From Candidatus Gastranaerophilales bacterium HUM_9 (lineage in GTDB: Bacteria > Cyanobacteriota > Vampirovibrionia > Gastranaerophilales > Gastranaerophilaceae), in the NCBI GenBank assembly GCA_002103075.1, contig DABG01000018.1:400836-464835 (forward strand): a stretch of 64,000 nucleotides of DNA, written 5' to 3'. A program made the translations under genes and the position numbers. The notes below the pieces were generated by a model, which saw only the letters and a list, made by a program, of their open reading frames with translations, did no database searches and was not told the origin of the DNA. This document shows positions 2,493-56,935 of this stretch, one piece after another (position 1 is the stretch's first letter; every line of letters starts with the position of its first letter).

Positions 2493-2664
2493 GTAATGCG
2501 TAATGCACAATGCACAATGACGGTTTGTGTTTGCAGGGGTCCTGAATCAAGTTCAGGACGACGTTCGGGTGGTTACAGAACGGTTGGTTTATGGATTGCC
2601 ACAAATTTGCGTTGCAAATTTTCGCAATGACTGATTAAAATTATCATGGACAGTAATGAAGACA
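2493..2664. repeat. Mosaic extragenic palindromic repeat cluster A
   Basis: Contains the hairpin module ggtCCTGAAtcaagTTCAGGAcgac, the module cagaacggttggtttatggattgccaca...cgcaatgac, and aaaattatcatggacagtaatg. All three recur in other intergenic regions of this window. Confidence 0.85.
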
Positions 2665-2765
2665 GATTCAGTATCCCTCTAAAGTCTTTGCCTAATAACT
2701 TATCTTATAAATAACTAGCTAATTAGGTAATAGTTCAAATAATTGGACTTATCTATTCTGAAAAT

Positions 2766-3392
2766 ATGAAGAATGTTTTATGTTTTGGTGACAGTAATAC
2801 TTACGGTTTTAATCCTGAAAACGGTGGTAGATATGATGATAACATTCGCTGGACAGGGGTGTTACAACACTTGCTTAAAGATGAATACAATATTATAGAA
2901 GAAGGTTGTAACGCAAGAACCGTTATATTTAAAGACTTTGGAGATTACAAAACCTGTAGTATTGATTATTTGCCAGACTGTTTGAAAAAATATAAAAATA
3001 CAGATTTAGTAATATTTATGCTCGGTCTGAACGATTTTCAAACGATTTTTCATGCCTCTGTTGATGCTGTTTTGACGGGGATAAAAACTTTGGTTAATAT
3101 TATTAGAAATTCTGATGTGAATTTTAAAACTGAAATTTTACTTCTTCCTCCTGCAATTATTGGTAAAAATATTCAACAAAGTAACTTCGGTTGTATGTTT
3201 AACAAATACTCAATCAAGAAAACTATTGAATTTACTCAAAAATTAAAAGACCTTGCTCACTCAGAACACTGTGAATATTTTAATATAAACAGAATAATTA
3301 AAACTTGTTCAGAAGATAGTATTCATTTTAAGCCAGAGGCCCATAGAAAAATTGCTGAAACTTTATCTGTATTAATTCCACAAATTTTATAA
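2766..3392 (+). CDS. SGNH/GDSL-family hydrolase (arylesterase/lipase-like)
   Basis: Block I is LCFGDSNTYG, the GLND block is FMLGLNDF, and the C-terminal DSIHF supplies the DxxH block. Confidence 0.85.
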   Translation: MKNVLCFGDSNTYGFNPENGGRYDDNIRWTGVLQHLLKDEYNIIEEGCNARTVIFKDFGDYKTCSIDYLPDCLKKYKNTDLVIFMLGLNDFQTIFHASVDAVLTGIKTLVNIIRNSDVNFKTEILLLPPAIIGKNIQQSNFGCMFNKYSIKKTIEFTQKLKDLAHSEHCEYFNINRIIKTCSEDSIHFKPEAHRKIAETLSVLIPQIL

Positions 3393-3484
3393 AAACTTCT
3401 TTACAAAATGTCACAAACATGGCAATTTTCTTGCGTATATCGACTTAGTATATATATAATATATAAAATAACTAGGAGATTGCT

Positions 3485-4411
3485 ATGGCGATAACGCTTA
3501 ATACAGATGATTATCATTTAAAGACACAGTTGAATTTGTCGACATCTAGGTGGCAAGGCTATGCTGACAAATCTATTGATGAAGTTATTGAAGCGGAAGC
3601 AGAAAGCGGCAATACGCTTGCAAAAGATTATGGAAGAAAATTATTTGGAAGTGCTGATGAACTTATCAATACTTTCCAATTAAATGACCCAAGCAATAAG
3701 TACAATATTATTAACAAATTGTCAGCAGAGCAAAGAGAAAAAGTTCTTCAAATGCTTGATACTGATGATATGGTAGTAGGATTGAATTTCTTTACTCAAG
3801 ATAAACTACAAGAAATGCTTCAATACGCATCACCTGCTGAAAATATTAACGTTGCATTGGAAGCGTTCCCATTGCAAAAAATCATACAAATGATGCCTGA
3901 AGATGAACTTGAAGGATTTTTCATGAGTGATGATTTAAAAAAAGAAGTAATAACAGCTCAATTGAGAAACCTTGATCCTGAGTCATTAATCCAAATGACA
4001 GAGGGAATTACAGGGCAATCAGTTGACACAAACGACATCTCCAAAGTACTCAACCAACTAACTTCATTGCCTGATAAACAGTTCAAGGAAACAATGGCAA
4101 CACTTGACCCAGAGGTTCAACAAGCAATAATCTTACAGATGGCAAATGAAGATATGAGTGTAATGTCGAACTTTTCAACGGGTGCATATATTGATATGGT
4201 TAGCCAACAACAAAAACCAGACATGGTTAAATCAATGGTCGCTCTAAACCCTGAGTCATTGCAAATAATGACACGTGAACTACCAGATGATTTATTCTCA
4301 ATTGTTGCATCACAAATTGACACTAAACAGCTTGCTCAATTCCTTATCAATAAGTGTCCGCAAGTGTTAGAACAGTTTGTTTCGATGGGTAACGCTGGTT
4401 CTATTCATTAG
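3485..4411 (+). CDS. Hypothetical acidic helical-repeat protein (weak FliG/MgtE_N-like L-x-PE repeats)
   Basis: A 308-aa ORF with SD aggag upstream. It has repeated LDPE/LNPES...Q(I)M segments and no signal peptide. Its N-terminus MAITLNT is shared with the 19316..19801 gene. Confidence 0.6.
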   Translation: MAITLNTDDYHLKTQLNLSTSRWQGYADKSIDEVIEAEAESGNTLAKDYGRKLFGSADELINTFQLNDPSNKYNIINKLSAEQREKVLQMLDTDDMVVGLNFFTQDKLQEMLQYASPAENINVALEAFPLQKIIQMMPEDELEGFFMSDDLKKEVITAQLRNLDPESLIQMTEGITGQSVDTNDISKVLNQLTSLPDKQFKETMATLDPEVQQAIILQMANEDMSVMSNFSTGAYIDMVSQQQKPDMVKSMVALNPESLQIMTRELPDDLFSIVASQIDTKQLAQFLINKCPQVLEQFVSMGNAGSIH

Positions 4412-4901
4412 GCGTTGTTAAAAATTCTTTTAACATCTCTAAAGCACATTGTGTGAATTGATATTTCATCTTTTCACGTTTTAGCTTTGGATTCAGTCTG
4501 AATTCTTGAACAACTGCTTTGTAGTTTGATTTTATGGCAACATACATAAGACCTACTGGTTTGGTTGGTGTACCACCAGTTGGGCCTGCAATTCCTGTTG
4601 TGCAAACCACTATATCAGCATGTGTTTTTGCGTGTAATCCCAATGCCATTTCTGCGGCACATTCACGGCTAACAGCTCCGCAGTTTTCAAGTGTTTGGGT
4701 TGTAACACCTAATAGTGCGTGCTTAACTTCGTTTGAATATGTCACAAAGTTCAATTTTGTATATCTTGAACTGCCAGAAACATCTGTAAGACGAGAGCTT
4801 AAAAGTCCGCCTGTGCAAGATTCCGCAGTGGAAATTACTAGCGAATTATCGAATAATATTTGTGCTATTTCTTCTTCTATTTTTTTCTTTCTTCTAAACA
4901 T
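4401..4901 (-). CDS. pncC: CinA C-terminal domain / nicotinamide-nucleotide amidase PncC-like
   Basis: Hallmark motif AESCTGGLLSSRLTDVSGSS is present and the length is about 165 aa. Confidence 0.88.
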   Translation of the reverse strand: MFRRKKKIEEEIAQILFDNSLVISTAESCTGGLLSSRLTDVSGSSRYTKLNFVTYSNEVKHALLGVTTQTLENCGAVSRECAAEMALGLHAKTHADIVVCTTGIAGPTGGTPTKPVGLMYVAIKSNYKAVVQEFRLNPKLKREKMKYQFTQCALEMLKEFLTTPNE

Positions 4902-4984
4902 AACATCTATAATTTATTGCACATAAAAAGGTTTGTCAATAAACAATTTAGATGAGTTTATTGGGTAAAATTTTAGACAAATAG

Positions 4985-5017: not shown

Positions 5018-5028
5018 CAGTGTTTTAA

Positions 5029-6928: not shown

Positions 6929-9900
6929 ATGATAATAAATAAAATTTCTGATAAAAATAACGTAAAAATTATAACAAAGCAATATCTGGAATGGCTTGAT
7001 ATGGGTGCTATTTCGTCTGAGATATTAGTGTTAAGTTTTAATTCAAATTCTAAAAAAAATATTGAAAAAAATATACTAAAATTAACAAAAAAAAATCTAT
7101 TATCAGAATTTAAAATTCATACTTTTAACGGTTTAATTTATAACACAATTTTGGATAATTGGAGCAAGTTAGAAGATTTGCTAGATAAAGAAGATTGTAT
7201 AATTTCACCTAATCTTGTAGGACTTGAAGTTTCACAGCTTCTGTTTAAGCAGATTATTCAGGAACAAGTGGTTAAGGGTTATAATTCTAAAAAATCCTTG
7301 TTGCAACAGATTTTTAGACGTTATTCTTTAATTGTAAATAATCACCTTTCCCCAACAGAAATTAAACATAAATCAGAAATTTTGCACGAAGCATTTGGAG
7401 AAGATGCAAATAATATTATCAATCTTTATAAGTCGAAAACTATTGATTTGAGAAGTTTTGATTATATTAGACAGGCTCAAATTTTTGGATATATTTATAA
7501 AAATACTGAGTATTTTAAAAATATTAAATATTTAATAATTGAAGATGGCGATGAAGTGACGCCATTGTTAATAGATTTTGTAAAATTGATTGCTAAGCAA
7601 TTGAAAGATAGCTTAATTTTGTTAGATGTAAATGGCGGAAGTCGTTGTGGATATTTGTGTGCAGACCTTGAGGCACCACAAAAGTTTGAGAAAATTTTTA
7701 AAGAAAAAATTCAAAATTATGATGATAAATTTGTTGATAAAACTATTTGGGAAAATGTTTTTTCTGAAACAAAAACTCCGATAAAAAATATTAAGAATTT
7801 TTCTGCTTCAAAACGTCTAGATATGATTGATGAAGTTATCCAGAAAATTATTAAATTGTTGAATAAAAATGTAAAACCGTCTGACATTGCAATTATTACA
7901 CCTATTCAAGATAGTATGCTAAAGTGTCTTTTGCAAGAGGGATTGAATAATTATGATTTAAAATTTTTATCGGGTAATGAAAAACTCGTTCAGAACCCTT
8001 TGGTTAAATCGATTTTGGTTATGCTTAAACTTGTTCAAGGTAAACCTGTTGACGAATATGAATTAAGACTTGTACTTTCAAATTCTTTAAAAATTCCAAT
8101 AAGATATTGTGAAAATATTTTGAAAACATTTGGAAAAACAGGCGAACTTAGGGAATATGAGATAGGAAGTTATACTGAAAAATATGAACAGCTCTGTAAA
8201 GTTGTTGAATTCTTACGTGGTTCAAAATATAAACTATCTAAAAAAGCAAGCTATATTTATGAAAATTTGATTGAATCAGTTGATGAACAAGAATTGAAAA
8301 AGTTTTCGTTTTTTGTAAAAGAATTGCAGGATTTTGAAAAAACTTTTGCAAATAATTATGATGAAAAAGTTGAAGATGAAATTATTGTACAATTAGAAAA
8401 TACTGTTATTGCAGAAAATCCTTATTCTGTATTAGAAATCAAAGATAGTGAAATAATAGTTTCTACTCCACAAAAAATTATTGATAATAAAATTACAACT
8501 AAATATCAGTTTTGGCTAGATATATCTTCTGGTGAGTGGCAAAAAATGGATATTGGTCCATTATATAATTCGTGGGTGTTCCAAAAGAATTGGACAAAAG
8601 ATGAGTATACGGTTGAGGATAATATTAAGTTCACTAACGAAAAAACTGCAAGGTTTTTGTGGAAACTTTATCATAACGCTAAAAAAATTGTTGTTTGTTC
8701 AAGTTTGTTTGATACACAAGGAGTTGAAAACCTTGGTGGAATTGAAAAATTTGTTGTTGTGGAAACAGAAGTTCCAAAAGAAAAGCCTAAACAATTTAAA
8801 ATTATACCACGTGACGACCAAAAACCAGTACTTGAGTATAAATCAGGCAAAATGGCGATTTCAGCAGTTCCTGGGGCGGGAAAAACTACTATTTTGTTAG
8901 CGTTGATTGTGAAACTTTTGAAGCGTGGTATAAAACCAGAGAATATTTATGTAATGACTTATATGGAATCTGCTGCCAGAAATTTTAAAGAACGTATCAA
9001 AGCACTTTATCCGTCTTCTTCTAAGTTGCCCAATATTAGTACTATTCATGGACTTGCGTTGAGGATTATTAAAGAAAATTCGAATTATGAACGTATTGGA
9101 TTAAACCCTGATTTTGAGATTTGTGACGATATCCAGCGAGGGAGAATAATAAAATTTTTATCCAAAAACCTTAAAAAAGAAGATGTGGACGACTTTGATA
9201 GAGCAGTGTCTGTGCTAAAACTATGTGGTGCTAATTTGAACTATAAACAAAATCCGGAGATGGCACGTATTATGGGATTAAAGCGTGGCACGGTTGAAGA
9301 AGCTAAAATGGCTAGATTTTTGAAGTTTTTCTATGCTTACCAAAGAACACTGATTTCTCAAGGGTTGATTGATTATGATGATATTTTGATTTCTGCGGTT
9401 AGGTTGCTCGAACAAAATCCTGATGTACTTGAATATTATCAGAATATCTGTGAATACATGATTGAAGATGAGGCTCAAGATTCTTCGTTTATTCAACAAA
9501 AGTTGATAAATATGCTTTGTGCAAAACATAACAATTTAATAAGATGCGGGGATATCAATCAAGCGATTACAACGACTTTTACCAATGCAGATATATCTGG
9601 ATTTAAACAGTTTATTGATGAGTCACAAAAGGTTAGTATGAATTGCTCTCAACGTTGTAGTGAGGGTGTTTGGAAACTTGCAAATTCGCTTGTTGATGTA
9701 GGGGAAAGACTGCTTCCAAATGCATTTTATAAAATATATATGAATCCTGTTGAGGGTAGAAATCCGGAAGAGAAAAAGCCTATTGTATCAGAGTTTTATA
9801 ATAATGGTATTGATGAAAAAATTAAGGTCGTTAATACGATTAAGACGTTGTTTAGACAAAATCCTAAAAGTACTGTTGGGGTTTTGTTGAGAAATAATTA

Positions 9901-11430: not shown

Positions 11431-11444
11431 AAATAAAAAAGTTA

Positions 11445-11513: not shown

Positions 11514-11668
11514 AAAATGACAATTAAATATAGAATAAATAATGTGTGCCGCAATAGCTCCCCAGTGAAGCGAAGCGGAACGAAAAGGAAAAATAGTAGA
11601 GCAAGGCTCTACCAACGTTTCCAAAATGACAATTAAATATAAACAAATAATGTGTGCCGCAATAGCTC
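11514..11668 (+). repeat. Direct duplication of the tRNA-Phe upstream region plus the first 13 nt of the tRNA, enclosing a scrambled pseudo-tRNA fragment
   Basis: Copies at 11514..11560 and 11623..11668 are near-identical (aaaatgacaattaaatata..aataatgtgtgccgcaatagctc). The interior contains tagagcaagg (tRNA-like) and its inverted partner ctctaccaac. Confidence 0.8.
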
Positions 11669-11731
11669 AGTTGGTAGAGCAAGGGACTGAAAATCCCTGT
11701 GTCCTTGGTTCAATTCCGAGTTGCGGCACCA
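11656..11731 (+). tRNA. tRNA-Phe (anticodon GAA), CCA encoded
   Basis: Manual cloverleaf: acceptor GCCGCAA/TTGCGGC, D arm GCTC..GAGC, anticodon stem AGGGA/TCCCT with loop CTGAAAA, T arm CTTGG TTCAATT CCGAG, and 3' ACCA. Confidence 0.93.
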
Positions 11732-11747
11732 TTTTTGTTTGTATAAT

Positions 11748-11922
11748 GTCATTCATAGGGAGTGCAACGACCGAAGAATCCCCTTGAACATGTATAGCAC
11801 GTCATTACGAGGAACGGAGTGACGTGGTAATCCAGAAAAAGTTTTTTTATGTACGCAGAACTATTGGTTTATAGATTGCCACACTTAATACATTGCATAC
11901 CGTTAAATTGCTTGTAATGATG
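11748..11922. repeat. Mosaic extragenic palindromic repeat cluster B
   Basis: Contains gtcattcatagggagtgcaacgaccgaagaatcccc and the long unit cgtcattacgaggaacggagtgacgtggtaatccagaaaaag...tatagattgccacacttaatacattgcataccg. Confidence 0.85.
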
Positions 11923-12018
11923 TATTAAACTCACCCACAAAAACGAAGAAAGGCCACATCATCTCGACGTGAGCCCCTCTTACCATATTTAACAACGAAA
12001 AAGAAATTTTTATATTTA

Positions 12019-13848
12019 CTAGCCACCGAACGTTTTGAAACTTGATTCAACGTTTTTACTAACAACTTTCTGACAAGCTTCCATTTCTGTTTGAAGTGCA
12101 GATTGTTCAGTATTTAATTGTTCAAGTCTTAATTGAAGCTGTCTATCTTCTGCCTGAATAATTTCAGTTTTTGCGTTAATTCTTGCAACTTCGTTATCGT
12201 ACTGTTCTTGTTTGTAACGATATTGGTTCATTGCATTGTTATACGCATCTTCATCAGTAATAGCTTCACAGTTCAATGTATATACTACGCTATCATCTTC
12301 AAATTTGATTGATTTGAAACGACCTGTGCCATCTGTTTCACATAATGCGTTCTTAACCTCTTCAACTTTTGTTTTGATGTATGAAGCGTTATAGTATTTA
12401 AGTTTGAATTGTCCATCAATACCGTTTTCTGCGATATTGTTTTTGTCAGCACCTTCACAAGCCTTTGATAAATCATCGGTAGTTGTGTAGTATGTTGTGC
12501 CATTCATTTGGAATTTATAAATCCCACCTAAATATTCGCCAGTATCAGGGTCAAAACACTTAGACAAGTTTGCATAAGCCTGTGGATCATTAGCTTTCAT
12601 ATCCTTAAGTACTTGTTCAAGCTCTGTTTTCATGTTCTTTTGATCAGCATCTGTCCAGTCATCTGGCAAGATTTCTGTCAAATTGCAGTTACCAACTGAT
12701 GTGTAGTTTGAATATGTAGGGTTGTTTTCTGCTGAATGTAAGAACAATTTATCCTTAACGTCAGCTGGATTATCTGGGTTTAATACTAAATTAGAAATTT
12801 CTTTAGCAGATAAGTAGCTTGTGCCATCTGTATAGTATACATTTGTATCACCACTTCTTACGGTTGCTGTAGCAACATCGCCTTGAGCGTTTGCTGTCTT
12901 ATCCATTTCATTTCCGCTTATGAATACATAATTACCGTCATCAAGTTTTGTTGCATAATATGTATCATTGATATCAAAATTTGCACCATAACTTTGTGTA
13001 ATAAGGTTCTTAAGTGCTGGGTTGTTGTCTAAATCAACTTCTGAGAATGCTGTTCCAGCTGCAACAGTTTTTTCAATAAAACGTGGGTTATCTGCTGCAT
13101 CTTCTGCTTTTGTATCGTCAAAATCAGGGTTTGGAACTTTAACTTTTACATCTTGAGCAAATGCCCATTGATTTGTTGTAGCAGCTGCACCACCAGCATT
13201 ATCAACCCAAGAACTTGTACCACCGTCCCAAGTTTTTGGTATGGCACCAGCTTTTGTGAAGTTTGCACGTGCTCCACTTGCTGTTTGTGTTGTTCTTGAA
13301 TAGATTGCATCTAGTGCATCTACTTGATCTGGATCAGATGTTGCATCAACTCTTCGGAATGTCTTAGTTGATTCAACACCGTTTCTCAACATTGTAAATG
13401 TGTAAGTGTCATCACCAGCACCAGTCTTAGACTCTTGCTTGTAGTCCACATTAAGAATTTGATACTCTGTATCAGGTTTGTTCGTAAAGTGGTTTGTCTT
13501 AAGTGCTTGAACTTGAGGATCGTTAAGTTTTTTCGCAGAACCTGTGTATACGTCCTCATAGTGATAACTTGTTACAACATAGTTGTAATCTTCTTGTGGT
13601 GTACCTAGCCTGTAAAAATCTGAAACTACAGAATTATTGATGCCATCACTCCAAGAATATTGAAGAGTGGTGTAATCTGTGCTGTCAGGACAAGTTGGTA
13701 CAGACATCGTCAACATCTGATTAAATAAATCAGCTGATTGGTTTGACAAGTTTAACCTTTGTTGGTTTAACTGTTGGCCTTCATATTCGGTATTTGTCTT
13801 TCTGGCAGACAAAGCCAAATATCGAGCCTGCGTAGCTGCCATACCCAT
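12019..13848 (-). CDS. Lineage-specific 609-aa protein with helical Q/N-rich termini and a long variable central region
   Basis: A strong SD (aaggag 6 nt before the ATG) precedes it. The N-terminus is MGMAATQARYLALSARKTNTEYEGQQLNQQRLNLSN and the C-terminus has heptad-like text EDRQLQLRLEQLNTEQSALQTEME. I recognise no family. Confidence 0.75.
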   Translation of the reverse strand: MGMAATQARYLALSARKTNTEYEGQQLNQQRLNLSNQSADLFNQMLTMSVPTCPDSTDYTTLQYSWSDGINNSVVSDFYRLGTPQEDYNYVVTSYHYEDVYTGSAKKLNDPQVQALKTNHFTNKPDTEYQILNVDYKQESKTGAGDDTYTFTMLRNGVESTKTFRRVDATSDPDQVDALDAIYSRTTQTASGARANFTKAGAIPKTWDGGTSSWVDNAGGAAATTNQWAFAQDVKVKVPNPDFDDTKAEDAADNPRFIEKTVAAGTAFSEVDLDNNPALKNLITQSYGANFDINDTYYATKLDDGNYVFISGNEMDKTANAQGDVATATVRSGDTNVYYTDGTSYLSAKEISNLVLNPDNPADVKDKLFLHSAENNPTYSNYTSVGNCNLTEILPDDWTDADQKNMKTELEQVLKDMKANDPQAYANLSKCFDPDTGEYLGGIYKFQMNGTTYYTTTDDLSKACEGADKNNIAENGIDGQFKLKYYNASYIKTKVEEVKNALCETDGTGRFKSIKFEDDSVVYTLNCEAITDEDAYNNAMNQYRYKQEQYDNEVARINAKTEIIQAEDRQLQLRLEQLNTEQSALQTEMEACQKVVSKNVESSFKTFGG

Positions 13849-14093
13849 AGGCTTCTCCTTTCGTTGTTAATATGTGTTAAATATGTTTTTTCATGGTTTC
13901 TTTTAATGCTACTTTTTTATTTTTCAATTTTTTATTACATAGCACTACTATTATGTTACATTTCTTAACATTTCTTTTCAACGGTTATAGATTTGTATTC
14001 TATACAAATGTATAAAGGATTTCATACTAAAGTATGAGAGATTAGGGGTTGTTGATGATTTTTGGTGATTTTGTCGTGTACGCATTAAATACG

Positions 14094-14813
14094 CTATCTC
14101 AAAAGCATTTCAATAGTAGATGCAGCAAACACAGCCATCTTTGTTTCAACCTGAGCCAAAGACATAGGGGCAGAGCCATCTGCCAAGTCTGAAATTGCTC
14201 TTATTATCATACAAGGTACCCCATTTTTGTTTGCGGTTTGGGCAATTGCTCCACCCTCCATTTCAACAGCAGTCGCATTGAATAATTCTAAGAGTTCACG
14301 TTTTTTTTCAGATGATGATACAAAAGTGTCACCTGTTGCAATAACTCCCTTATGTACAGTTATATCTGTTGAGTTTAAAGTTTTCATAGTTATTTCAAAA
14401 TCATTAATCAAATTCTTATCAGAATAAAATAATGTTGGTTTATTAGGTTCAATCCCTGTACACATATATCCTTTTGCATATCCGAGTGCCGTAGCATCAA
14501 AATCATGTTGAACTAAGGTCTCGCCAATAACGATGTCGCCAACCCTTAAGTTAGCATCTATTCCACCTGCAACACCTGTATTAATAATACAATCAGGTTC
14601 AAACTTATCTATAATATACTGAGTATTCAAAGCTGCGTTGACCTTGCCAACTCCGCTTTTTGCAAGGATAACTTCGTGGTTGTTTATCTTGCCTGTATAA
14701 ATAGTTAAGTCATGATAATCGTCTTTTTTTAAGTCCTGCATAATCGCTTGAAGTTTTTCAACCTCACAGTCCATAGCACCAATGATTGCGTATCGTTTAA
14801 TTCTATTCGGCAT
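14094..14813 (-). CDS. mtnN: 5'-methylthioadenosine/S-adenosylhomocysteine nucleosidase
   Basis: IIGAMDCEVE, SGVGKVNAA and VEMEGGAIAQ motifs are present. It overlaps the luxS stop by 11 nt. Confidence 0.92.
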   Translation of the reverse strand: MPNRIKRYAIIGAMDCEVEKLQAIMQDLKKDDYHDLTIYTGKINNHEVILAKSGVGKVNAALNTQYIIDKFEPDCIINTGVAGGIDANLRVGDIVIGETLVQHDFDATALGYAKGYMCTGIEPNKPTLFYSDKNLINDFEITMKTLNSTDITVHKGVIATGDTFVSSSEKKRELLELFNATAVEMEGGAIAQTANKNGVPCMIIRAISDLADGSAPMSLAQVETKMAVFAASTIEMLLR

Positions 14814-15310: not shown

Positions 15311-15447
15311 AAAAGTTTATATGTACGCAGAAATAATATATTTAATTTGTAGTACGTAATGCGCCATTATGTATTCGCAGGGATTCTTCGCTTCGCTCTG
15401 AATGACGATTGAGGTATGCAGTATAGTAAGTTCGGAATAACGTCACT
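15311..15447. repeat. Mosaic extragenic palindromic repeat cluster C (degenerate)
   Basis: Contains aaaaagtttatatgtacgcagaa, cgcagggattcttcgcttcgctctgaatgac and gtaagttcggaataacgtcac, all related to modules seen elsewhere. Confidence 0.7.
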
Positions 15448-15451
15448 ATTC

Positions 15452-22540: not shown

Positions 22541-22747
22541 AATTGTAGGTTGGGGTTTCCACCCCAACAAAATATGTTCAGATGTTCACAGGGATTCCAC
22601 GCTTTCTTTAAAAGATATTTGTTGCACGCTCTGAATGACATACCTAGTGTCATCCAGAGGGAGTGAAACGACCGAAGGATCCCCCTGAACATACAGAATT
22701 GTTGATTTATGGATTACTGCACTTAATATATTGCATACCGTGAGTGG
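22541..22747. repeat. Mosaic extragenic palindromic repeat cluster D
   Basis: Modules in order: aattgtaggTTGGGGTttccACCCCAAcaaaa; ..cagggattccacgc...gcacgctctgaatgac; gtcatccagagggagtgaaacgaccgaaggatccccctgaac; ..ttatggattactgcacttaatatattgcataccg. The cluster abuts the stop codon of the 633-aa gene. Confidence 0.9.
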
Positions 22748-30077: not shown

Positions 30078-30102
30078 TTAGGATTTTGAATATAACTTCT
30101 GA

Positions 30103-30194: not shown

Positions 30195-30333
30195 ATTGCG
30201 AGGAGTGAAACGATGTGGCAATCCATAAACCAACTGTTATGCATGTTTAGGGAGATCCTGAAATGAATTCAGGATGACATCAAAATCAAATATAATATGT
30301 CATTCCGAACTTGTTTCGGAATCCCTGCAAACA
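30195..30333. repeat. Mosaic extragenic palindromic repeat cluster F
   Basis: Contains attgcgaggagtgaaacgatgtggcaatccataaacc, gagATCCTGAAatgaaTTCAGGATgac and gtcATTCCGAActtgtTTCGGAATccctgc. Confidence 0.88.
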
Positions 30334-34100: not shown

Positions 34101-35468
34101 AATGATAGAAAAATCGCATATATGATTACTCATGATAAGATGGATATTCCTAAAAATGAAGAGGATAAAATACTTCATGATCCTGATATGTTCAACAATG
34201 TGAGTGCAAAGGCTGTTGCAAATGGTGCTTTGTTGAGAAACAGTATTGGTGCTATCAATGAACAAATGAAGCAACAAGAACTTAGAAAGATAGATAAATC
34301 TGATAAATCAGAACATGAAAAGAATGTAGAACGAGAAAATACTCATAAGAAATACGATGCGATTTATTCAGCGTTGTCTGGAGCTGTTGCAGACGTAGTA
34401 AATGGCAAATATTATAAGAACGAAGATGAATCAAAGACTAATAAGACACCTGATTCAATCAAGAAAATCAATGAAAAAGACGGTTTTGGTTCAAAACCTA
34501 TTCCTACAGCGTTTGATATTGTGTATGATCAGGCTGTACATTCTAAAAAACTTGATGAATTGTTATCAGGTGATGAAAAAGAAGCATATAAAGATGCTGT
34601 TTATATGAAAGCAACTGAGGTTGGTCGAGCAAAGACAAGAATTATCACAAGATATTTAAGTGCATTGTCAGGTAACCCTACAATTTATGCAGGTGATGAA
34701 GGCTTGGCTATGACAGGGGCTGAGGATAAGTGTCAAAACACATTCTTACAAAACCGTAATGCATTAGATTGGTCGTTGGTTGATAAAGATAGCCCAAATG
34801 CTAATAAAGACGTTCAAAACTTTATGAACGATATGTTTGGAATCACAAGGGTAAGAATGGACGATAACGGTAATAAGATGGAAGCATTGAACAATGGTAC
34901 AATGACAAAACTTGTTACTCAAAATAGATACATTTTTGCCGATAAACATAATGATAACAAGCAATGTCCTGCGGTTATTTATCAAGCAGGTAATGGGGCA
35001 ATGAGTGTGTCTTTATTTAATCCAAACGGTATTACAACTGCTCAAAATGTAAGCCCAGATGATTTACACCCAAATCAATTTACACTAGAGGGCGGTATCA
35101 ACTTGGAACAAGATGTTAAAGGTAGACGTGAAAAGATTAGCTTGACACCTGGAACTGAGTTTAAGAATGCGAATAATCCTGACTATAATTATCGAGTATT
35201 TGAACATGACGGTAATTATTGCATAAAACAGATTGATTCAAATGGTAAGGAATCAGGTATTGAGTTGAATGAAAAGACAGCTCCTGATGGGGTATTGATG
35301 TTGTACCACGTACCTGAGGATATCGCAAACGAACGTAGTGAAATGGCAGAAACAAAGAAACGTGAATATTATAATAAACAACATAATATTATGCCAAACG
35401 GCGGTTATCAAAGTTCTGTAGATGAAGGAGAAACAGGACATAACTTGAATGTAACATCAGAAGAATAA
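31161..35468 (+). CDS. Giant (1435 aa) GH13 alpha-amylase-superfamily protein with a very large insertion
   Basis: GH13 region II GLDWRLDAAKD (Asp807), region III LVAEITD (Glu855) and region IV FASNHDKPR (Asp956) are present, along with the beta1-2 text GGTMAGIEVKVPELRKAGFKRIITCP. There is no signal peptide. The N-terminus is MKINESNS. Confidence 0.8.
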   Translation: MKINESNSIKKVSFQGHQHEKTESGEEAYRFNCLYDKNKYDCEVQFFKVGQDKKNNFFIEKGCNGTMEPFYSAEVGDHGVQVDADYDLDLQKNEPFAYRFKLKSKDGSKTEYPQSNGFTIDGCSVITRRGTSVTKQGPMYLTIADTFNPGYVYAGFNDADTGKIKGMETADKRKVVADKVRNSNRTFSNTIGGTMAGIEVKVPELRKAGFKRIITCPLKGGDNASSHKYWNENNFLMAGGIGNINNYNSLQRTAFKHGMNLVDDGTFTSEGLQGVHFQRAIKWMDPDNKPDEYYMFRMSGLQDDSLGLGVVPENYENMRLKVVNGVSDYEKQSDGQYKIVKNKDYNPKQPTYIQLYDDTMVSDEQRADKTHVITQYDKVNSDSSLSANTHDDTPVPYTFEATNPYELDKNIKSLNEVNKMRGSSERIDKDSPAGAMFLGSLSNIKIAPKEEGGFVCWDANTDMVKMNYFTSNYDDELLASEKDPAKRAIEMDKYRRANYQVQDMTLAAGRYWTKEVRNTHNEYVAKTIGEISSNPTKAFNRIDSILNSQNPDKPVLPEDVRVSKAVVENVLNGDYIMREKSDNYDDLVNSAIMDLPLDSLEFANDTAGALSSPYISKRSTDEEHLGQTRFESINDPSFKVDKKYAKTFNKMNDVYTKDIKGFADKVLNQVNENSKEKLFDEEGEVTEYGQYVIPLVAGDIAKYALVKSLMPSVKAKQIEGGEIAYDYDTMREEGTLRNLGINGDSQEDEANQVVNKISKGVNLLKSSDVDFVSKSINKRIQNTNANSFKLAEVMVDRSGLGLDWRLDAAKDVADMDSVRNMDQTFDKAWDNVVKFWGNFVDTVKEENPNSYLVAEITDVGDLIKSQPDDKSDLKYNSEEKSMNSLFNVAGITSEANYSYFFDGITSMFAKDFTNGNDNVGNNDNARVGKLEDSISRFVKMPLDYQRNSYVFASNHDKPRMIHFMSMDMGLYHSDLKVGKDNDRKIAYMITHDKMDIPKNEEDKILHDPDMFNNVSAKAVANGALLRNSIGAINEQMKQQELRKIDKSDKSEHEKNVERENTHKKYDAIYSALSGAVADVVNGKYYKNEDESKTNKTPDSIKKINEKDGFGSKPIPTAFDIVYDQAVHSKKLDELLSGDEKEAYKDAVYMKATEVGRAKTRIITRYLSALSGNPTIYAGDEGLAMTGAEDKCQNTFLQNRNALDWSLVDKDSPNANKDVQNFMNDMFGITRVRMDDNGNKMEALNNGTMTKLVTQNRYIFADKHNDNKQCPAVIYQAGNGAMSVSLFNPNGITTAQNVSPDDLHPNQFTLEGGINLEQDVKGRREKISLTPGTEFKNANNPDYNYRVFEHDGNYCIKQIDSNGKESGIELNEKTAPDGVLMLYHVPEDIANERSEMAETKKREYYNKQHNIMPNGGYQSSVDEGETGHNLNVTSEE

Positions 35469-39769: not shown

Positions 39770-40148
39770 CGTCATTGTGAACGATTGAACGGTTTGTAGA
39801 ATTGTAGGTTGGGGTTTCTACCCCAACAATAATATGTACTGGGGGATCCTGAAATAAATTCCACTACTGTCCATGATAATTTTTATTCGTCATTGCGAAC
39901 GATTGAACAGTTTGCAAAGTAGTAAGTGCGGCAATCCATAAACCAACAGTTCTGCATGCTCAGGGGGATTCTTCGGTCGTTACACTCCCTCTGAATGACA
40001 GTCTGGGTGCGTCATTCAGAGCGTGCTGTAAATATTCTGTATCGAAAGCGTGGAATCTCTGCAAAAAGTTAAGGAGACCCTGAAACGAGTTCAGGGTGAC
40101 TAGAACTAAATAATAGTAGTCATTCCGAACTTGTTTTGGAATCCCTGT
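39770..40148. repeat. Mosaic extragenic palindromic repeat cluster H (largest array of modules)
   Basis: Order: W-unit, G hairpin (loop variant ttct), X module (inverted), W-unit, S, R, hairpin gaCCCTGAAacgagTTCAGGGtgac, hairpin gtcattccgaacttgttttggaatccctg. Confidence 0.92.
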
Positions 40149-40688: not shown

Positions 40689-43600
40689 ATGCGTATAAAT
40701 TCAATTAATTCAACTACTCCCAAATTTAAAAGTGTTAGAGAAGACAGAAATACAACTTCTCAATTAAGTAAAAACAATGATTATTCGTTAACTGAACCAA
40801 ATCAAAGACGAATAAATAAGGCTATTGAGAATTTGGCAAAACAGCGTGGTGAAGAAAATATCAAGTTCTTGTTAAATGTTGGTGAGAATTTAACGTATCA
40901 AACAAATATTCCTGATGCTAAACCTACTAAAAATGAGTGGCGTTCAAAACTAAAAGATGCTACAGAAAAATCTTTGGCAATATCAGATCCTATCTTGAAG
41001 TCTAAATATGAATCTGAAATTTCAAGAGTATTTGACGAACCTAAGAAATTGTCTGATGATGAAAAATCTATTCTTGAACATAAGAAATCAATCATGTCAC
41101 GTGTAGATTTAGATAGTATAAAATCTAATCCAAATGAAAATATTAGAAATTTAGAAAAGAACATGGACTACTTCATATCTTCTACAGAAACTCCAATCAA
41201 GCAAAAAGCCTATGTTATGGAACGTTTAGATTATATGATGAGTCCTGATTATCATATTAATCCTCAGTTAAAAGATAAAAAAACTCAAGTTTTGGCTGAA
41301 ATGATGAACGATATGGTTATTAATACACCAGAATCAAAAGTTCCAAACATGAAAGCTGTAAACCAAAAAACTCACGGTATGTGTGCAGCTATCTCAATCG
41401 CAAGAAAAGCTGTAGCGTATGAAGATAAACCTGATTATGTAGATACATTGATGTCTGAACTTGATGATACAAATAAAGTAATGGTTTACGATAGACACAA
41501 CATTGGTAGTGGAAAACGTGTTCCAGTTGAAAAAACTGCTGTAGATTTTGATTATGCTCAAGATAAAGGTTACAGAATTATTGACGCATCTACTCTTCAA
41601 TGGATGGGTATTGCTGGCATGTACGGTAATAAGAGTGAAAAACTTCACGATTTCTTCGCTTTTGATAAAAATAATTTTGATGCGTTCCACGATTCATTCT
41701 TTATGAAGACTATTAACAAAGATGATTTGAAAACAAAACATTGTTACTTCCAATCTTTAACTAAAGCAAAAGATGAAATCGGTAGTGTTAAAGCTGATAA
41801 AACTCTTAAAAATATGGAAGTTAAATCAAGAAACCATAATAACGAAGAAAGTATAAAATTAATTCAAAAATATAATGATGATACGATGAAAAATATTAAG
41901 GAAATCGTTCCTGATATTTCAAAAGAAGAGCTTCGTGAAGATATAAATAATCTTGCAAAACTTTATGCTCCATCATCAGAAAAATTAGAAAAACATTCTG
42001 AAGATATAAAAGGATATAGTTTTATTCCAAACGAAGAAAAAACTCAAAAAGAGAAAAAAGTAAAAGCATATTTTGTGGATAAATATGCAGAAAGAATTTC
42101 TGATAAAGATTCAAAAGACAATATTTCTAATCTTGTTTCAAACATAGAAACAGTTCATTCATTGGAAAATTCTTTGTCAACTTCAAAACCTTTATCATCA
42201 AAAATTGGTCAAGCGAGAAAGCTATATAATGCTGAATCAGCATACAGAGCAAGTATTGCTACAGGACTTAGAGATGATGATATTTTAACAGACTATCTTA
42301 TCCATTATAATATTCCAGATAGACAAACAAGAATTTCTGACGGTTATCAAACCGTAATTGATAGAATTACTAAAAAAGATGATAAAAAATTATTAAATCA
42401 TTATACAACCGTATTTGGTTTAGAGCCAGATGATAAAGAGGGTGCAATAGAATCATTAAAAGCGGTTAAAAAATCTGTTGACACTATTCAAACAGCTGGT
42501 ATTGATGATTTGTATACAAGAATGGGTATTGGTACAAGAAAATATTTGTTGATGAGTGAAATAAATTCTGTAAAAACTCTTGTTGAAGATGGCGATAAGG
42601 CAGAATTGAAACGTATTTCATCAACAATGGGTATGAAACCTGATAAAAAAGCTGTGACTAAAGAACTTTCTAAAATGGAAGACTCTTTATTGAAATCATC
42701 AGATGAAAAAGTTTATAAACACGTATTTAATAAAATGGGCTACAAAGATGAAGTAATAAACTTTGTTGATGTATATGGAATGTTCGTTGCGAAATTGAAT
42801 GACCAAGATGATCCGATGTCAGCAGCAGCATATTTGCAATCATTTAAAAATACAAATGGATTAGCAGAAGATGCTTCTCCTGAAGAATTAACAAATGCTA
42901 TCAATGGTATCGGACAAACATTTAATATCTATTCTCAAACATTAGAAAATGCAGAAATGTTGTTGAATGTTGCAAATGATGACGGTACAGCTTATTTCAC
43001 AGTTGATGGCCCACAAGTTGTTATGAAAAAAATGGAGAATGAGGGTAAACTTGTTCCTGCAAAAGATATGAGAATGTTACAAACAAGATTTAATAAAATT
43101 GACAAAATTCGTTCTTCTGACGAGTTTTCAAGCAGACAAGGAAAGATTTCTGATCCATCATTATATAAATTGTCTAACTCAGAAAAAGCTGCGGTTAAAC
43201 AAATAAACGGCAAAATAAACATGATGTATTCTGATACAGTAAAAGAATATGAAAACATGTTTAAAACAATAAGAGAACCATTAGAAAAACATATTAGATA
43301 TATTGGTACAAACGAAGGTACTTATTGGGTTGGTTCAGACGGTCACAGTGGTTTAAGCAGTTCTCAACAAGTTAAGATTATTGAACAAATGACAGATAAA
43401 CCATATCAAGCTGTATCAAATATTGAAGGTGCAATTGAGCAAATCAAAAACACAGAGCATTCTGGTGTATCTTCAACAAGTGTATTCAATGACAAACATG
43501 GCTGGCATGCTCAATATATTGCTGACGTAAATGAAGTTGGTAAAGATGGTAGAACTGCAATGTTCCACGATAACACTTGGGGTGCATCTGAACACGAAAA

Positions 43601-46600
43601 TACTTGGGTTGATTCAGAAGGATTAACAAGAACAGATTATTCTGATAATCGTGGTGGTGAATTTGGTTATATCACAAATGATGATTGGAGAAATGGTAAC
43701 TATGTTGACAACTTAACTAGAAAAGCAGGTCATATTACTCCACACGATATTGATAACAAAATGTATAAAAAACTAAGACCAGCAGGAGAAGAATACGATT
43801 TCTCTACAATTTCAGATATTATTGTCCTTGGGGAAAGTAATACTTATAAAGATATTGCTGCATCTATCAAAGATACAATATTTGTTCCTGATTCAGTATT
43901 CTTGCCTACATTGAAAAAAGAAGCTAGTCAAATGACAACAAGGGAAATCCAAAAGGCTATCTTTAAAAATGATTCTGCAGGATTAGGTTATCACGCAAAA
44001 TTTGATAAAATGGATAAACGTATCAAAGGTGATAGCTTGCACGACGGTATCAAAACATTAGAAGATTATAACAAGTTATCTGATAATGACCCGATTAAAA
44101 TAACTTTTGAAAAAGCTGCAATCAAGTTAGCATATAGTGACGCTTCTATGTACAAAGAACTTGGTAAAGCTACTACAATGAAAGAAGTTCAAAAAGTTAA
44201 ACAAGAACAAAGAAAAGAAGCAATTAAAAACTTTGATTATTCATTCGGTAAATCAGAAGAAACTTTGACATATTTAGCAAAAGAACATAGAACTGATATT
44301 GCAAATATTGTTGTAAACGCTTTGAAAAACAATAATATAGATGCAAATAAAGGTATTGATATCGTTAAAAACGTAGTAGTTTTTGAAAACGAAGATGAAA
44401 AAGCTAAATTCACAGGTAGCGTAAAAGATACTATCAAGTTTGTATTAGACAAGACATCAAAACAATTTGATGCAGCTGTAGATGATTCAGAAGATTCAAG
44501 AAAAGCAAAAGCTGAAATAATGACTAGTATGAAAGCTATGTTAGAAGATTCTTTATACTTCAATAAAGAAGATTTGAACGCAAAAGGTTCAAAAATCAGA
44601 GGTATAAGAAACTGGATTGATACTAAGTTTAATCCGAAATCTGACGAAGAATTTGTACAAATTTATAGAAATCTTCAAGATATGCCTGCTAAAGATTTTG
44701 AAAAAGTTAGAGCAGATGTAACTGACAAACAATTGGGTATGTCTGAACAAACAGGATTTGATGTATTGCAAAAATACAATGCGGCAAATGATGAAGCAGA
44801 ATCAACAGTAAAAAATATCTTGTTCTATGAAGAATATACTAAGGACTTGCAAGAAAGTAAGTTGAAAACAACTTATAAGTATAACAAACTTGAACGTAAG
44901 ACAAGAGGTGCTGTTTACGTTGGTGAAAGAACTTTTGATGATTTGTATCGTTCGATGAAGTTTACTTTAAGCAGTGTAACTTATGAAAAAATGTTCAACA
45001 AGTATAAAGATAGAAATATCAAAAAATACGGTGCATTCCCAGCATATCCAAAACTTGATATGAGTAATAACAAAGGTATTCAATCTCAAGTTGATTTGTT
45101 GAACGACAAAGTTAATTCTTTAATGACAGATATTATTCAAAAGAAAAATATTAAACGTGATTATGAAATCTCAGACGAGATGAAGAATTATGTATCACAA
45201 ATGAACCCTGAAATGAAACCAACTGCAACTGAACGTAAGTATATGCAAAAGTTGGCAGGTGAATTTATCACATTGAATATGAATGATGAAAGTATCCCTG
45301 CTTCTACTGAAGCTGCATATAATTTGTTAGATATGGATAGGGATACAACTTATGCAGATTTGAAATCAAATGCAGATGTTATTATCAACGAATTTGAAGC
45401 AATTAAAAAAGCTAATGCAAGCGTTGATTTAGATGAATATACAAAGAATTTGAGCAAGGCATTAGATAATTATACTAATACAATTATTGATGTTGGTATT
45501 CCACCAAAATATCAAAGAAAACTAAAAGAAGATGCTAAAATTTGGCAAACACTTGAGTTTAAACTTGCTACTGATTCAGGTAAACAGTCAAATGACTTGC
45601 AACAATTGAAATCTAAGATAAAGGCAGGTTCAATCAATTATGGTTCTGAAAAGCAACTTAATAGTTTTGAAAAAATTCAAGATATGGTTATTAAAACAAG
45701 CAAGTTGAATAAATCAGATGCTAAAAAGGTTGATGAGTCTGGTTATAAGCCATTAGACATTGCTATGTCTAAGAAAGATGCAGATTTAAAGAAAGCAAGA
45801 GTTGCTGAAAAACAAGCTGAAATCTCAGAAGCAATCGATAGATATGTAAATAAATATATTAAAGAAGATTCTAGAGATAACATAAAAGCAAATATGGCTG
45901 ATTGGGCGAATAAAGAAATTCGTGGTGGAAATCGTCGTAAGGTAACTGAAGACGAAGTTGTTGAAGCTAGAGAAAAATTCGCAGATGATTATTATAAATA
46001 TCATTTGACTAATAACCCAATTGAATTATTGGATAGATACTTGTTATTGACAGCGAAAGATGCAAAAGAAAAATATCCAAATTCAGCAAGTAACGCTGTT
46101 TCTTATGAACGAGTTTTATCAGATGAATTGAGTTTAACAAGATATGTAGAAATTCAAGACGCTCTAATGGAAGCAGTTCATGAGGGTAACCCAGCTCACG
46201 TAAAACATTATTTTGATGATTATACAATTGATGCAGATAATAAAGTGAGCATGAATAGTGATGAAGCAATTAGTCACATGGTTGTAAGTTTGTTGATGGA
46301 AGATAACACTAAGCCGGCTAAGATGTTTGTTGAAAAACTTGGACTTGGTGACAGAGTTATGGATATTGAAACAAAAGTTCTTCATGATGCAAAACCAAAA
46401 AAACAAGTTGATAAATTGGCAAAAACATTGAGATCAATTGGTCAATTCCAATCTACTGCAAATAGTGAGTTTGAGGAATTGATGAATAGAATTACTGATT
46501 CAGATAATCCAGATGCTGAAATTGAAACAATGAAGCAAAATATCTTGAAAAACTTGCGTGGCATGCCAAAGAACAGCAAGGTAGTAAAAGCATATTTTGC

Positions 46601-55110: not shown

Positions 55111-55124
55111 TATACTTGCGTCAC

Positions 55125-55952
55125 TTATTTATTAATATTCTTCTTTGCTGTTTCTTTGATTTTTTTAAGGTGTTGTTCAAATGCACGATACCATTTTAGT
55201 TTTTGTTGGAATAATGTTTCATAGCCATCGAATCTGGCATGAGAGATGTTTTTTAATTGGTTGTCGCATAAACTTTCAAGAGTTTCTGCTAGGTATTCTG
55301 CGTATTCTTTTCTGTTTATTTTGTCATCAGCTAATTCAATTACATCACCAAATTCAACCCATACTTCTGGTCTGTTATCTCTCAAGAATAAGTAATCAAC
55401 AGCTACAGGTACAAGGTTAACTTTTCCGTATTTTTTTACAGCTTTTTGTGCGATATATGATAAACCTGATTGAAATTCGATTGGTCTAAAATACGGTGGT
55501 CTAATAATACCCTGAGGAAACAAATACAAGATGTTATCAAGGTTTCCAACCACTTCGACTGAGTATTTTAGAGATTCCATAGAGGCTTGTGGAGATTTTT
55601 TGTTTACGCTAAAAGCTCCGCCACGTCTAAGTAACGGAAAACGATTAAGTTCTTCAACCATTAGTCTAATTTGTTTTTTACATATACGGTTGCAGATATT
55701 GTAACCAACAATTCCGTCCCACCAGTTTGTGTGTGGTGCAAACATAATTGTAGGGATTTCTTTGTTGCGAGCGTTATATTTTTCAACTCCTTTATACCTG
55801 AAGGCATAAAAACGGTTTTCTAACATTCCATAGAAAAATCTATCTGCAACCCATAACCAAAATGGTGATGTTTTTGCAGCTCTAAACCTTTCGTCTTTTT
55901 TCCTCAACTTTGTAGGAGGAACTTCACAATATAACTCGTCTAAATTTCCCAT
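55125..55952 (-). CDS. Lysophospholipid (1-acyl-sn-glycerol-3-phosphate-type) acyltransferase family protein
   Basis: The HX4D motif FAPHTNWWDG and the FPQG block are present. Confidence 0.78.
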   Translation of the reverse strand: MGNLDELYCEVPPTKLRKKDERFRAAKTSPFWLWVADRFFYGMLENRFYAFRYKGVEKYNARNKEIPTIMFAPHTNWWDGIVGYNICNRICKKQIRLMVEELNRFPLLRRGGAFSVNKKSPQASMESLKYSVEVVGNLDNILYLFPQGIIRPPYFRPIEFQSGLSYIAQKAVKKYGKVNLVPVAVDYLFLRDNRPEVWVEFGDVIELADDKINRKEYAEYLAETLESLCDNQLKNISHARFDGYETLFQQKLKWYRAFEQHLKKIKETAKKNINK

Positions 55953-56077
55953 ATAACTATCATATCACTAGATAGGCGGTTTTGTGAATAAGTAAAAAGG
56001 ATTATATTAAAAATTTTTACAAAACTTAGGTTTTGTTTAAAAAAATATGATATACTCTTAAAAAACAAGGAGTTTTT

Positions 56078-56710
56078 ATGAAGAAAATAATAGTTTTAAT
56101 ATCGTTTTTTATGTTAGGAATTCTGCCAGTACTTGCTGATACAATGGTTGTACAGGCGGTGACAGATATTTCTACCGCTAATCCTGAACAAGAGGTTAAG
56201 GTAAGAGTTTTAAGAAATTGTACTTTAGCAGATATGCCTTTGAAAATAGGTGATGTCTTAGAGGGCAAGATGATAGCTACTGATCCTAAACGATTGAAAC
56301 GTGATGCTACTTTTACGTTTTATCCTTTGAGTTGTATTGATTTGAATGGTAAAGTAACAAGATTTTCAATGTTATATTATGGCAAATTTTCTGCAAAGTT
56401 TGAATTAGATGTAGGAAAGGTTGCCGAAAGTGCGGTTGTATCTGTAGCGAATCATTTTGTTAAAGGGATTGGAACAGGGTTTTATGCTGTTCAGGGTGCT
56501 GTGAAGAATAAAGACGGTAATCCAATAAAATCAGCAGTGGTTAATGTGTATGAAAATTCTATTCTTTCTTATGCAAACAAAGGTGAAGAACTTACGATAC
56601 CTAAAGATAGTGTGTTTGGGTTGAAGTTTTCTGAATGTGAAAATGAACCATTGAGCGATGAGGAAAAAGAGGAACTTCAAAATATTCAAGAACAACAGAA
56701 GAAGAAGTAA
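56078..56710 (+). CDS. Hypothetical secreted protein
   Basis: The signal peptide is MKKIIVLISFFMLGILPVLA. No motif is recognised. Confidence 0.6.
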   Translation: MKKIIVLISFFMLGILPVLADTMVVQAVTDISTANPEQEVKVRVLRNCTLADMPLKIGDVLEGKMIATDPKRLKRDATFTFYPLSCIDLNGKVTRFSMLYYGKFSAKFELDVGKVAESAVVSVANHFVKGIGTGFYAVQGAVKNKDGNPIKSAVVNVYENSILSYANKGEELTIPKDSVFGLKFSECENEPLSDEEKEELQNIQEQQKKK

Positions 56711-56763
56711 AATTGAAACAATAATCTATGATAGTTTCAGGGGCTCTCAAAAGTTTTTATACA

Positions 56764-56935
56764 CGTCATTACGAGGAACGGAGTGACGTGGTAATCCAGA
56801 AAAAGCCTTTTTATGTACGCAGAACCGTTGATTTATGGATTGCCACACTTAATACATTACAAACTGTTCAATCGCTCGCAATGACGGTTTAAAATTATCA
56901 TGGACAGTAGTGGAACTAGTTTCGGAATCCCTGCG
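56764..56935. repeat. Mosaic extragenic palindromic repeat cluster K
   Basis: A complete long W unit (cgtcattacgaggaacggagtgacgtggtaatccag...ttatggattgccacacttaatacatt...ctcgcaatgacg), followed by the X module aaaattatcatggacagtagtgg and a partial ttcggaatccctgcg. Confidence 0.92.

Follow-up and report, generated by a model that had tools for sequence, protein, structure and literature searches.

The extragenic palindromic modules analyzed in this study were found in a 64-kb stretch of DNA with 33% GC (contig DABG01000018.1, positions 400,836 to 464,835, assigned to Candidatus Gastranaerophilales bacterium HUM_9; hereafter, the window), which comes from an uncultured "Candidatus Melainabacteria" bacterium of the human gut. 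The closest described systems are the CGTC-tagged REP (CGTC-REP) superfamily and the targets of the Ssn nucleases. The superfamily, defined by Di Nocera, De Gregorio, and Rocco in 2013, covers five phyla and includes the Neisseria dRS3 and the Rickettsia RPE-4 and RPE-6 repeats (PMC3733652). Its members consist of an unpaired CGTC or TGTC tag, an 8–9-bp stem starting with AT, a 4–5-nt loop, and a short unpaired tail close to CCA, and none was reported beside a tyrosine transposase gene, even in species encoding such enzymes (PMC3733652). These repeats were without a partner enzyme in 2013, and Ssn was shown for their Neisseria version in 2025 (PMC3733652, PMC11893778).

According to the sections of Chenal et al. 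2025 (PMC11893778) on which we draw here and throughout, SsnA is a GIY-YIG protein of about 100 aa (cd10448) that binds and cuts the Neisseria NTS (CGTCATTCCCGCGMAVGCGGGAATCYRG) as single-stranded DNA only; RNA and duplex DNA are not substrates, and RNA is not bound. Mutagenesis showed that cleavage depends on the three nucleotides preceding the palindrome and that the C immediately following it contributes most to binding. Palindrome changes preserving complementarity were also tested with SsnA, the outcome lying outside these sections, and cleavage also took place when the two halves of the site were supplied as individual oligonucleotides. Such motifs, termed Ssn-related motifs (SRMs), usually lie on the flanks of ssn genes, which are present in 81% of the genomes with more than 200 motifs. 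In Neisseria, Ssn restricts incoming transforming DNA.

On balance, we consider it probable that the modules of the window are GTC-tagged single-stranded DNA hairpins of the CGTC-REP/SRM kind, with an Ssn-type nuclease as the likely partner. Judged by the frame as it is read from sequence, they are members of this kind. The element appears to be defined by the frame, namely an unpaired (C/T)GTC, first stem pairs A-T and T-A, and an unpaired C after the stem, and not by its interior. A library of ten modules (A–J) built from the window gave, at a cut-off of E ≤ 1e-3, 38 matches with a total length of 1,567 nt, all of them in ten intergenic regions and none in a coding sequence; an eleventh intergenic region, 15320–15450, is a small cluster with a hairpin of the same frame. 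A first, sequence-only reading of this DNA had described a mosaic extragenic family, and the sequences that it quoted are present at or beside the positions given for them; the intergenic location of 38/38 matches and the total of 11 regions confirm its description.

The modules share the unpaired 5′ (C/T)GTC, the closing stem starting with AT, and the unpaired 3′ C(C). The frame consisting of GTC, an AT-starting stem of at least 5 bp, and AT followed by CC occurs 13 times in the window, whereas 100 dinucleotide shuffles averaged 1.8 occurrences and never exceeded 6. Among 64 copies located by their interiors alone, the GTC tag is kept in 57 and the C after the stem in 62; at the position preceding the tag, 38 copies carry C, 23 carry T, and 3 carry A. 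Modules C, F, and G have an 8-bp stem and a 5-nt loop and match the published CGTC-REP definition exactly, and in this short family G1, T2, C3, and the stem ends are invariant, the second base of the tail being variable. Modules A, B, D, E, and H close with 4–5 bp around interiors of 18–36 nt. Modules A and B end in AATCCA, and modules C to H in CCC or CTC; in the ACCC-type variants C-G takes the place of T-A as the second stem pair. Thus the conserved termini and variable interiors reported in the sequence-only reading are confirmed, and its common frame is shared indeed, with the corrections that either C or T precedes GTC, that the second 3′ C varies, and that the long modules close with only 4–5 bp. 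Single-sequence folding of the long modules often favours pairings other than the frame stem, so that their frame pairing rests on comparison and not on energy. The conserved positions, GTC before the stem and C after it, are the ones that the cited mutagenesis found to be required by SsnA.

The stems were analyzed in all DNA of this lineage. Short hairpins were collected by tag and loop only (GTC-N8-YTBRT-N8), so that pairing was not selected. Pairing along the stem is bimodally distributed: 7–8 of the 8 positions pair in 15 distinct sequences, and 0–5 in the background. These 15 hairpins represent four stem types, ATTCCGAA, ATGCTGAA, ATCCTGAA, and ACCCTGAA, and a few one-step intermediates. 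When the 15 are aligned, 97.5% of cells are paired, and both sides change in three of the eight pairs; the observed covariation score is reached by none of 500 shuffles, and slid controls collapse. A few variants hold the pairing only via G-T. The closing stem of family D switches between ATTC...GAAT and ATCC...GGAT, the remainder being unchanged. The stems therefore carry real compensatory changes, as had been suspected from the sequence alone, and the suggestion that one factor reads the folded hairpin by its frame fits this evidence.

Hairpins of the same types directly flank ssn homologues, in other organisms only, and the GIY-YIG domain of these homologues is confirmed by Pfam. In contig L111, an ssn homologue (1899–2186, Pfam GIY-YIG, E = 1e-15) is preceded by two further tagged hairpins and is followed, 5 nt past the stop codon, by a D hairpin that is 97% identical to module D of the window. 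Relatives of this homologue in the gut Firmicute contigs L134 and L136 have the same layout, with D-type hairpins on either side of ssn together with GTCATTCAGAGCGAAGCGAAGAATC and long-loop frames; the hairpin of window positions 15381–15406 is likewise present there, and in L134 it flanks ssn. The D-type hairpins at ssn in L111, L134, and L136 show 94–97% identity to module D of the window. Arrays of GTCAT...ATC hairpins, including long-loop forms, surround ssn in L145, L146, and L147, and in the Sphingomonadales-like contig L078 NTS-like hairpins stand on the flanks of the gene, an F/G-type hairpin lying 1.3 kb from it. The only groups reached by two homologue searches with contig look-ups were Sphingomonadales and gut Firmicutes or Clostridia; the close and the low-GC ssn homologues traced are from Firmicutes.

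As for the genomic context of these ssn genes, they were observed within a type IV pilus/pseudopilus operon in Clostridia contigs (L145 5480–5758 and L146 2981–3259), in a conjugative element that also carries PrgI and TraG genes (L137 8001–8294), and directly after uvrB-uvrA (L147 6001–6300). These contexts are tied to the traffic or repair of single-stranded DNA.

The distribution of the hairpins themselves is wider. With a degenerate pattern, a 26-nt short hairpin was found nearly unchanged in 58 IMG/VR contigs of 39–72% GC, with the same stem variants and loop, and module D is nearly unchanged in 27 metagenome contigs of 30–67% GC. The 21-nt pattern of module A has no matches in viral contigs and matches one place in a Fibrobacter metagenome-assembled genome (MAG), where it corresponds to an A/B-frame hairpin, CGTCATTGCGAG...CGAAGCAATC. 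Near-identical hairpins across phyla are expected if the hairpin and the enzyme travel together.

In 24 of the 58 contigs, mostly of high GC, the short GTC-tagged hairpin is located at a median distance of 171 nt from an HK97-type major capsid gene (PF05065), which is adjoined by portal and protease genes (IMG/VR contigs L048–L105; for instance, L070 952–2223). Many of the capsid-linked sites contain two hairpins in opposite orientation about 60 nt apart. These loci look like prophage or gene-transfer-agent-like head clusters.

The repeat regions vary strongly between strains. Many metagenome contigs from the human gut encode proteins of the window; one of these contigs is identical to the window, the rest show 96–99% identity, and the flanking DNA of the strains differs by 1–4%. 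In one species-representative genome, MAG CANNUY01 ("Candidatus Melainabacteria"), with 88–95% identity to the window where the two overlap, the 21-nt module A pattern occurs at 18 places. The presence/absence comparison of strains that had been proposed showed that nearly every repeat region is polymorphic among conspecific strains. For instance, region 54829–55115 is represented by an 18-bp repeat-free spacer in six strains and by another order of cassettes, A (plus), D (minus), E (plus), H (minus), in two. Two sites that are empty in the window hold clusters of 305–406 bp in other strains, and at one of them, the convergent region 52249–52328, a canonical bidirectional hairpin terminator is wholly replaced by such a cluster in three strains (L001 8555–8859, L007 8458–8863). 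The 84 nt from F (minus) to C (plus) at 30243–30328, with the tags facing, are cleanly missing in L033 and L037; the junctions of this indel read (A/C)TGC | ... CTGC |. The same alleles occur in independent samples and hence are not assembly noise.

The strains also differ in the loops of the hairpins. L034 has two short hairpins with 5-nt loops; at this place in L033 and L037, the same arms enclose inserts of about 190 and 116 nt, and in other strains inserts of 93–105 nt are found inside modules D and E. Short-loop and long-loop forms at one site thus are alleles, and the frame is their constant part. The inserts, designated K1–K3 and L, are structured, 93–190 nt long, and lie within the hairpin loops (L037 ~9320–9700, L003 4312–4697, L007 8458–8863). 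The K inserts start with GCGRATTT and end with YCAAGAC, and, taken as the reverse complement, they again have the make-up of a GTC-tagged hairpin; K2 holds two copies of a 40-nt hairpin.

The clusters of the window and their modules are as follows; orientation of the modules is mixed inside every cluster.

2493–2680, mixed orientation: cluster 1, with the short hairpin GTCGTCCTGAACTTGATTCAGGACCCCTGC at 2533–2562 (minus), an A-frame with a short interior hairpin at 2593–2631 (minus), and J at 2637–2678 (plus)
11747–11929, directly after tRNA-Phe: cluster 2, with D at 11747–11793 (plus), B at 11800–11854 (plus), and A at 11855–11929 (minus), the B/A pair being a B/A unit of about 130 nt
15320–15450, 3′ of an open reading frame (ORF) of 82 aa: small cluster, with the hairpin CGTCATTCAGAGCGAAGCGAAGAATCC at 15381–15406 (minus)
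22541–22741, between convergent genes: cluster 4, with I (plus), E (minus), D (plus), and a remnant of A (minus); absent in six other strains, which have a 21-bp spacer instead
27661–28093: cluster 5, a tandem duplication of A (plus), I (plus), D (minus), E (plus), with the GTC tags of the D/E pairs facing each other 11 nt apart; at least seven distinct alleles across strains
27722–27753 (plus): module I, the untagged G+C-rich hairpin GGTTGGGGTTTCCACCCCAAC, which always sits after the tail of an A module
30199–30328: cluster 6, with a remnant of A, F at 30243–30279 (minus), and C at 30298–30328 (plus)
30298–30328 (plus): the canonical short module C, T-GTC / ATTCCGAA / CTTGT / TTCGGAAT / CCCTGC, with an AT-starting 8-bp stem, a 5-nt loop, and an unpaired C tail
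39770–40147: cluster 7, with A (plus, 5′ part), I (plus), G (minus, part), J (minus), A (plus), D (minus), E (plus), an ACCC-type hairpin (minus), and C (plus); entirely absent in L033 and L037
50645–50760: cluster 8, with B (plus) lacking its 5′ arm, and A (minus)
54829–55115, between convergent genes: cluster 9, with A (plus), B (minus), G (minus), C (plus), and H (minus)
56764–56934: cluster 10, with the 125-nt B (plus)/A (minus) unit at 56764–56888, then J at 56891–56934 (plus); absent in L003 and L005, and reduced to GCGGAATCCCTGC in L009

Repeat finding identified three copies of the unit of about 130 nt, at 11798–11929, 54823–54951 (inverted), and 56762–56893, with 86–94% identity, and module copies within one genome are up to 100% identical. 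The unit of cluster 10 is bounded by the inverted repeats CGTCATTACGAG and CTCGCAATGACG. It had been described as two arms ending in inverted repeats, which is correct; by the convention of the GTC tags, which are outermost, the arms are arranged tail to tail and not head to head as had been stated. Two-hairpin dimers fold into long hairpins.

Several neighboring features deserve mention. A direct repeat of about 50 bp precedes the tRNA-Phe gene (11656–11731) in region 11516–11731; the upstream copy is a truncated pseudo-copy of the 5′ half of tRNA-Phe with the D-loop replaced by a 36-nt insert. Just downstream of infC/tRNA-Phe, other strains have different islands, which encode a type I restriction-modification system, a DpnII-type system, Mu-transposase_C/TniB, or amylase and acyltransferase, and this DNA looks like an integration hot spot. 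Two ORFs of 1435 and 2081 aa with no recorded Pfam match (31161–35468 and 40689–46934) are each located directly downstream of a long repeat-bearing intergenic region. In L031 and L036 (~11700–14260), extra small genes lie between the phosphorylase gene and the 1435-aa gene; their products look secreted and contain tandem repeats of about 14 aa, and repeat clusters bound the inserted segment.

The proposed mechanism would be as follows. When the DNA turns single-stranded, as in uptake, conjugative entry, the lagging-strand template, or repair, the hairpin would fold, and a small GIY-YIG endonuclease of the Ssn family would bind the stem and the 3′ C and cut a few nucleotides 5′ of the tag. We infer that such an enzyme of this bacterium cuts these sites; as in the restriction and trimming of incoming transforming DNA in Neisseria, the cutting would shape which DNA recombines. 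If only the frame matters, the stems would be free to change as long as both sides do, and the loops would accept large inserts, which would produce the zoo of modules A–H and their nested forms. The tolerance of SsnA to split sites (PMC11893778, sections cited) would explain why loop inserts are harmless. Clusters are gained, lost, and reshuffled between strains in units down to the two-hairpin dimer.

A bolder version of the scheme, which we regard as unlikely, takes the loops for active insertion sites, with the Ssn-type nick priming the copying of a tagged element into or beside the hairpin, so that Ssn and SRM would make up a new class of mobile DNA. If this were true, the Ssn/SRM pair would build nested mosaics, and the short- and long-loop alleles of the strains would be its fresh products.

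Several observations weigh against the Ssn-based explanation. No GIY-YIG or Ssn homologue was found in the window or in 770 kb of redundant loci (roughly 300 kb unique) from this species and its sister species by a motif scan or by phmmer and tblastn with two real Ssn seeds, and the ORFs flanked on both sides by frames encode nothing nuclease-like. Among the genomes with more than 200 motifs, 19% are without ssn (PMC11893778, sections cited). The published degenerate SRM pattern, HGTCWY N(0-2) YYVSBRH N(0-5) WNVSBRG N(0-2) RNCYNB, has no matches in the window and matches the Neisseria NTS used as a control; it likewise fails to detect the D-type hairpin beside ssn in L111, L134, and L136 and hence does not cover the whole family. 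Modules A, B, D, E, and H depart from the 8–9-bp stem and the 4–5-nt loop, and the long modules, with closing stems of 4–5 bp and interiors of 18–36 nt or more, are outside both the CGTC-REP and the SRM definitions. Boundaries of recombination blocks coincide with clusters in the pooled test (p = 0.003) and not significantly per site (p = 0.26). Finally, the copying and insertion of elements is unaccounted for by an endonuclease alone.

Another explanation would be a main role in RNA. The modules would be 3′-untranslated-region hairpins that terminate transcription or protect upstream mRNA, with the frame kept by an RNA-binding factor or by stability. The location of the clusters agrees with this possibility: as the sequence-only reading had noted, each adjoins at least one gene 3′ end (four convergent and six co-directional regions), and none of the nine divergent intergenic regions bears a cluster according to the ORF map, so that promoter regions of divergent genes are avoided. 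One cluster, moreover, replaces the canonical bidirectional terminator in three strains; the hairpins of the high-GC contigs stand near the major capsid gene, a classic position of stabilisers; and the few variants that pair only through G-T are compatible with RNA. The mixed orientation within clusters, however, puts half of the tags on the non-transcribed strand, the hairpins are not followed by a T-run, and canonical terminators coexist with the clusters at 30078 and 56950. Rfam provided no match: only tRNA-Phe reached the gathering score in the window, the K1–K3 and L inserts had no match and the alleles bearing them gave nothing useful, and the high-GC contigs gave sub-threshold matches only. 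Stability does not explain unpaired tags conserved across phyla, and SsnA is reported not to bind RNA (PMC11893778, sections cited). Because of the mixed orientation and the inactivity of SsnA on RNA, we consider a main role in RNA improbable; it may be a side effect.

It is also rather unlikely that the modules have no dedicated factor and are decaying relics of an extinct mobile element, palindromic through intrastrand template switching and shuffled by homologous recombination. Quasipalindrome correction by template switching is known to mimic compensatory change in the absence of selection, and the apparent compensatory changes in the stems could have this origin. Many partial modules and remnants are present, whole intergenic regions are replaced rather than cleanly inserted, and the sampled DNA has yielded no enzyme gene. 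On the other hand, the best conserved positions are the unpaired GTC and the 3′ C, which template switching cannot maintain. Moreover, copies in one genome reach 100% identity, compared with the strain difference of 1–4% in the flanks, the loop inserts are precisely placed, and the same frames are tied to ssn genes elsewhere.

The sequence-only reading had considered REP/BIME elements with RAYT transposases as the analogy. Mobilization of REP/BIME or REPIN elements by RAYT (a Y1 HUH tyrosine transposase), on the model of E. coli and Pseudomonas, would account for the extragenic palindromes, the mosaic clusters with mixed orientation, and the two-hairpin dimers that fold into long hairpins, one dimer being a unit of insertion or deletion. 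As a statement of membership, though, the analogy fails, and we regard it as very unlikely, since the tag is (C/T)GTC and not GTAG, and a phmmer search with E. coli RayT against lineage ORFs gave no match in the 770 kb of loci. The earlier statement that the window contains no IS200/IS605-like Y1 gene agrees with the precomputed Pfam matches for called genes, which include no Y1_Tnp in the window or in the strain loci, and CGTC repeats are not found next to tyrosine transposase genes even where a species possesses them (PMC3733652). The Ssn family fits better as the partner than RAYT, its mapped requirements matching what is conserved here. The remaining candidate, MITEs of a DDE transposon with the hairpin arms as terminal inverted repeats around variable cargo, is suggested by the inverted repeats CGTCATTRCGAG at the ends of the 125-nt unit and by the constant ends and variable interiors, and is highly improbable given that the ends are asymmetric and non-complementary (5′ GTC versus 3′ CC), that no transposase is found near the clusters in the window or in the strain variants, and that there are no convincing target-site duplications of the sort that had been named beforehand as an objection, the single CTGC...CTGC case fitting a deletion between short repeats as well.

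This lineage offers natural material for studying the multiplication of such repeats and their role outside Neisseria: many modules with one frame, short- and long-loop alleles at the same site, a two-hairpin unit that is cleanly gained or lost, and swaps of whole clusters between strains of 96–99% identity. As the SRM pattern misses these hairpins, surveys based on the pattern undercount the family. In gut metagenomics, the clusters are likely assembly break points and foci of strain variation.

The system can be compared with several known ones. The NIMEs of Neisseria are RS segments bounded by dRS3 repeats, with a cassette content that varies by strain, and a link with recombination has been proposed for them. 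They resemble the clusters in being intergenic, strain-variable mosaics in which short cassettes have the same tagged hairpin at their boundaries; the cassettes, the host, and the ecology are different, and here the hairpin arms themselves enclose the variable segment. Elhai and colleagues reportedly described in 2008 small repeats nested in hairpin repeats of heterocyst-forming cyanobacteria, which are said to have neither target duplications nor a known mobilizing mechanism; their sequences differ from those of the modules and lack the GTC...C frame. With the E. coli REP/BIME-RayT system and the Pseudomonas REPINs, the modules share a folded single-stranded DNA hairpin with an unpaired tag, a small nuclease (here a predicted one), a repeat-flanked gene (here observed in other organisms), two-hairpin dimer units, and mosaic clusters at gene 3′ ends, whereas the tag is GTC instead of GTAG and the nuclease is probably of the GIY-YIG type instead of an HUH tyrosine transposase.

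The similarity to the SRM/NTS system consists in the same frame with the same critical positions, GTC before the palindrome and C after it, and in the hairpin types found directly at ssn homologues elsewhere. In contrast to that system, no ssn has been located in the sampled lineage DNA, at least eight module types coexist here, and inserts are nested in loops, of which the sections of PMC11893778 cited here make no mention for SRM/NTS. The CGTC-REP superfamily has in common with the modules the tag, the 8-bp AT-starting stem and the 5-nt loop (in C, F, and G), and the unpaired tail (CCA in A and B), as well as the extragenic location downstream of genes, the dimers, the lack of a nearby transposase, and near-identity across phyla. 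It differs in that most copies in the window are long-loop forms with 4–5-bp closing stems and interiors of 18–190 nt, and dimers with outward tags (B/A) are as common here as those with tags facing. Dense mosaic clusters are the rule in this lineage, whereas clusters are rare for CGTC repeats (PMC3733652). The host phylum (non-photosynthetic Cyanobacteriota/Melainabacteria) is absent from the five listed for the superfamily. Thus this lineage adds to the known systems both a phylum not previously listed and an unusually elaborate, nested, and strain-variable form of the repeats.

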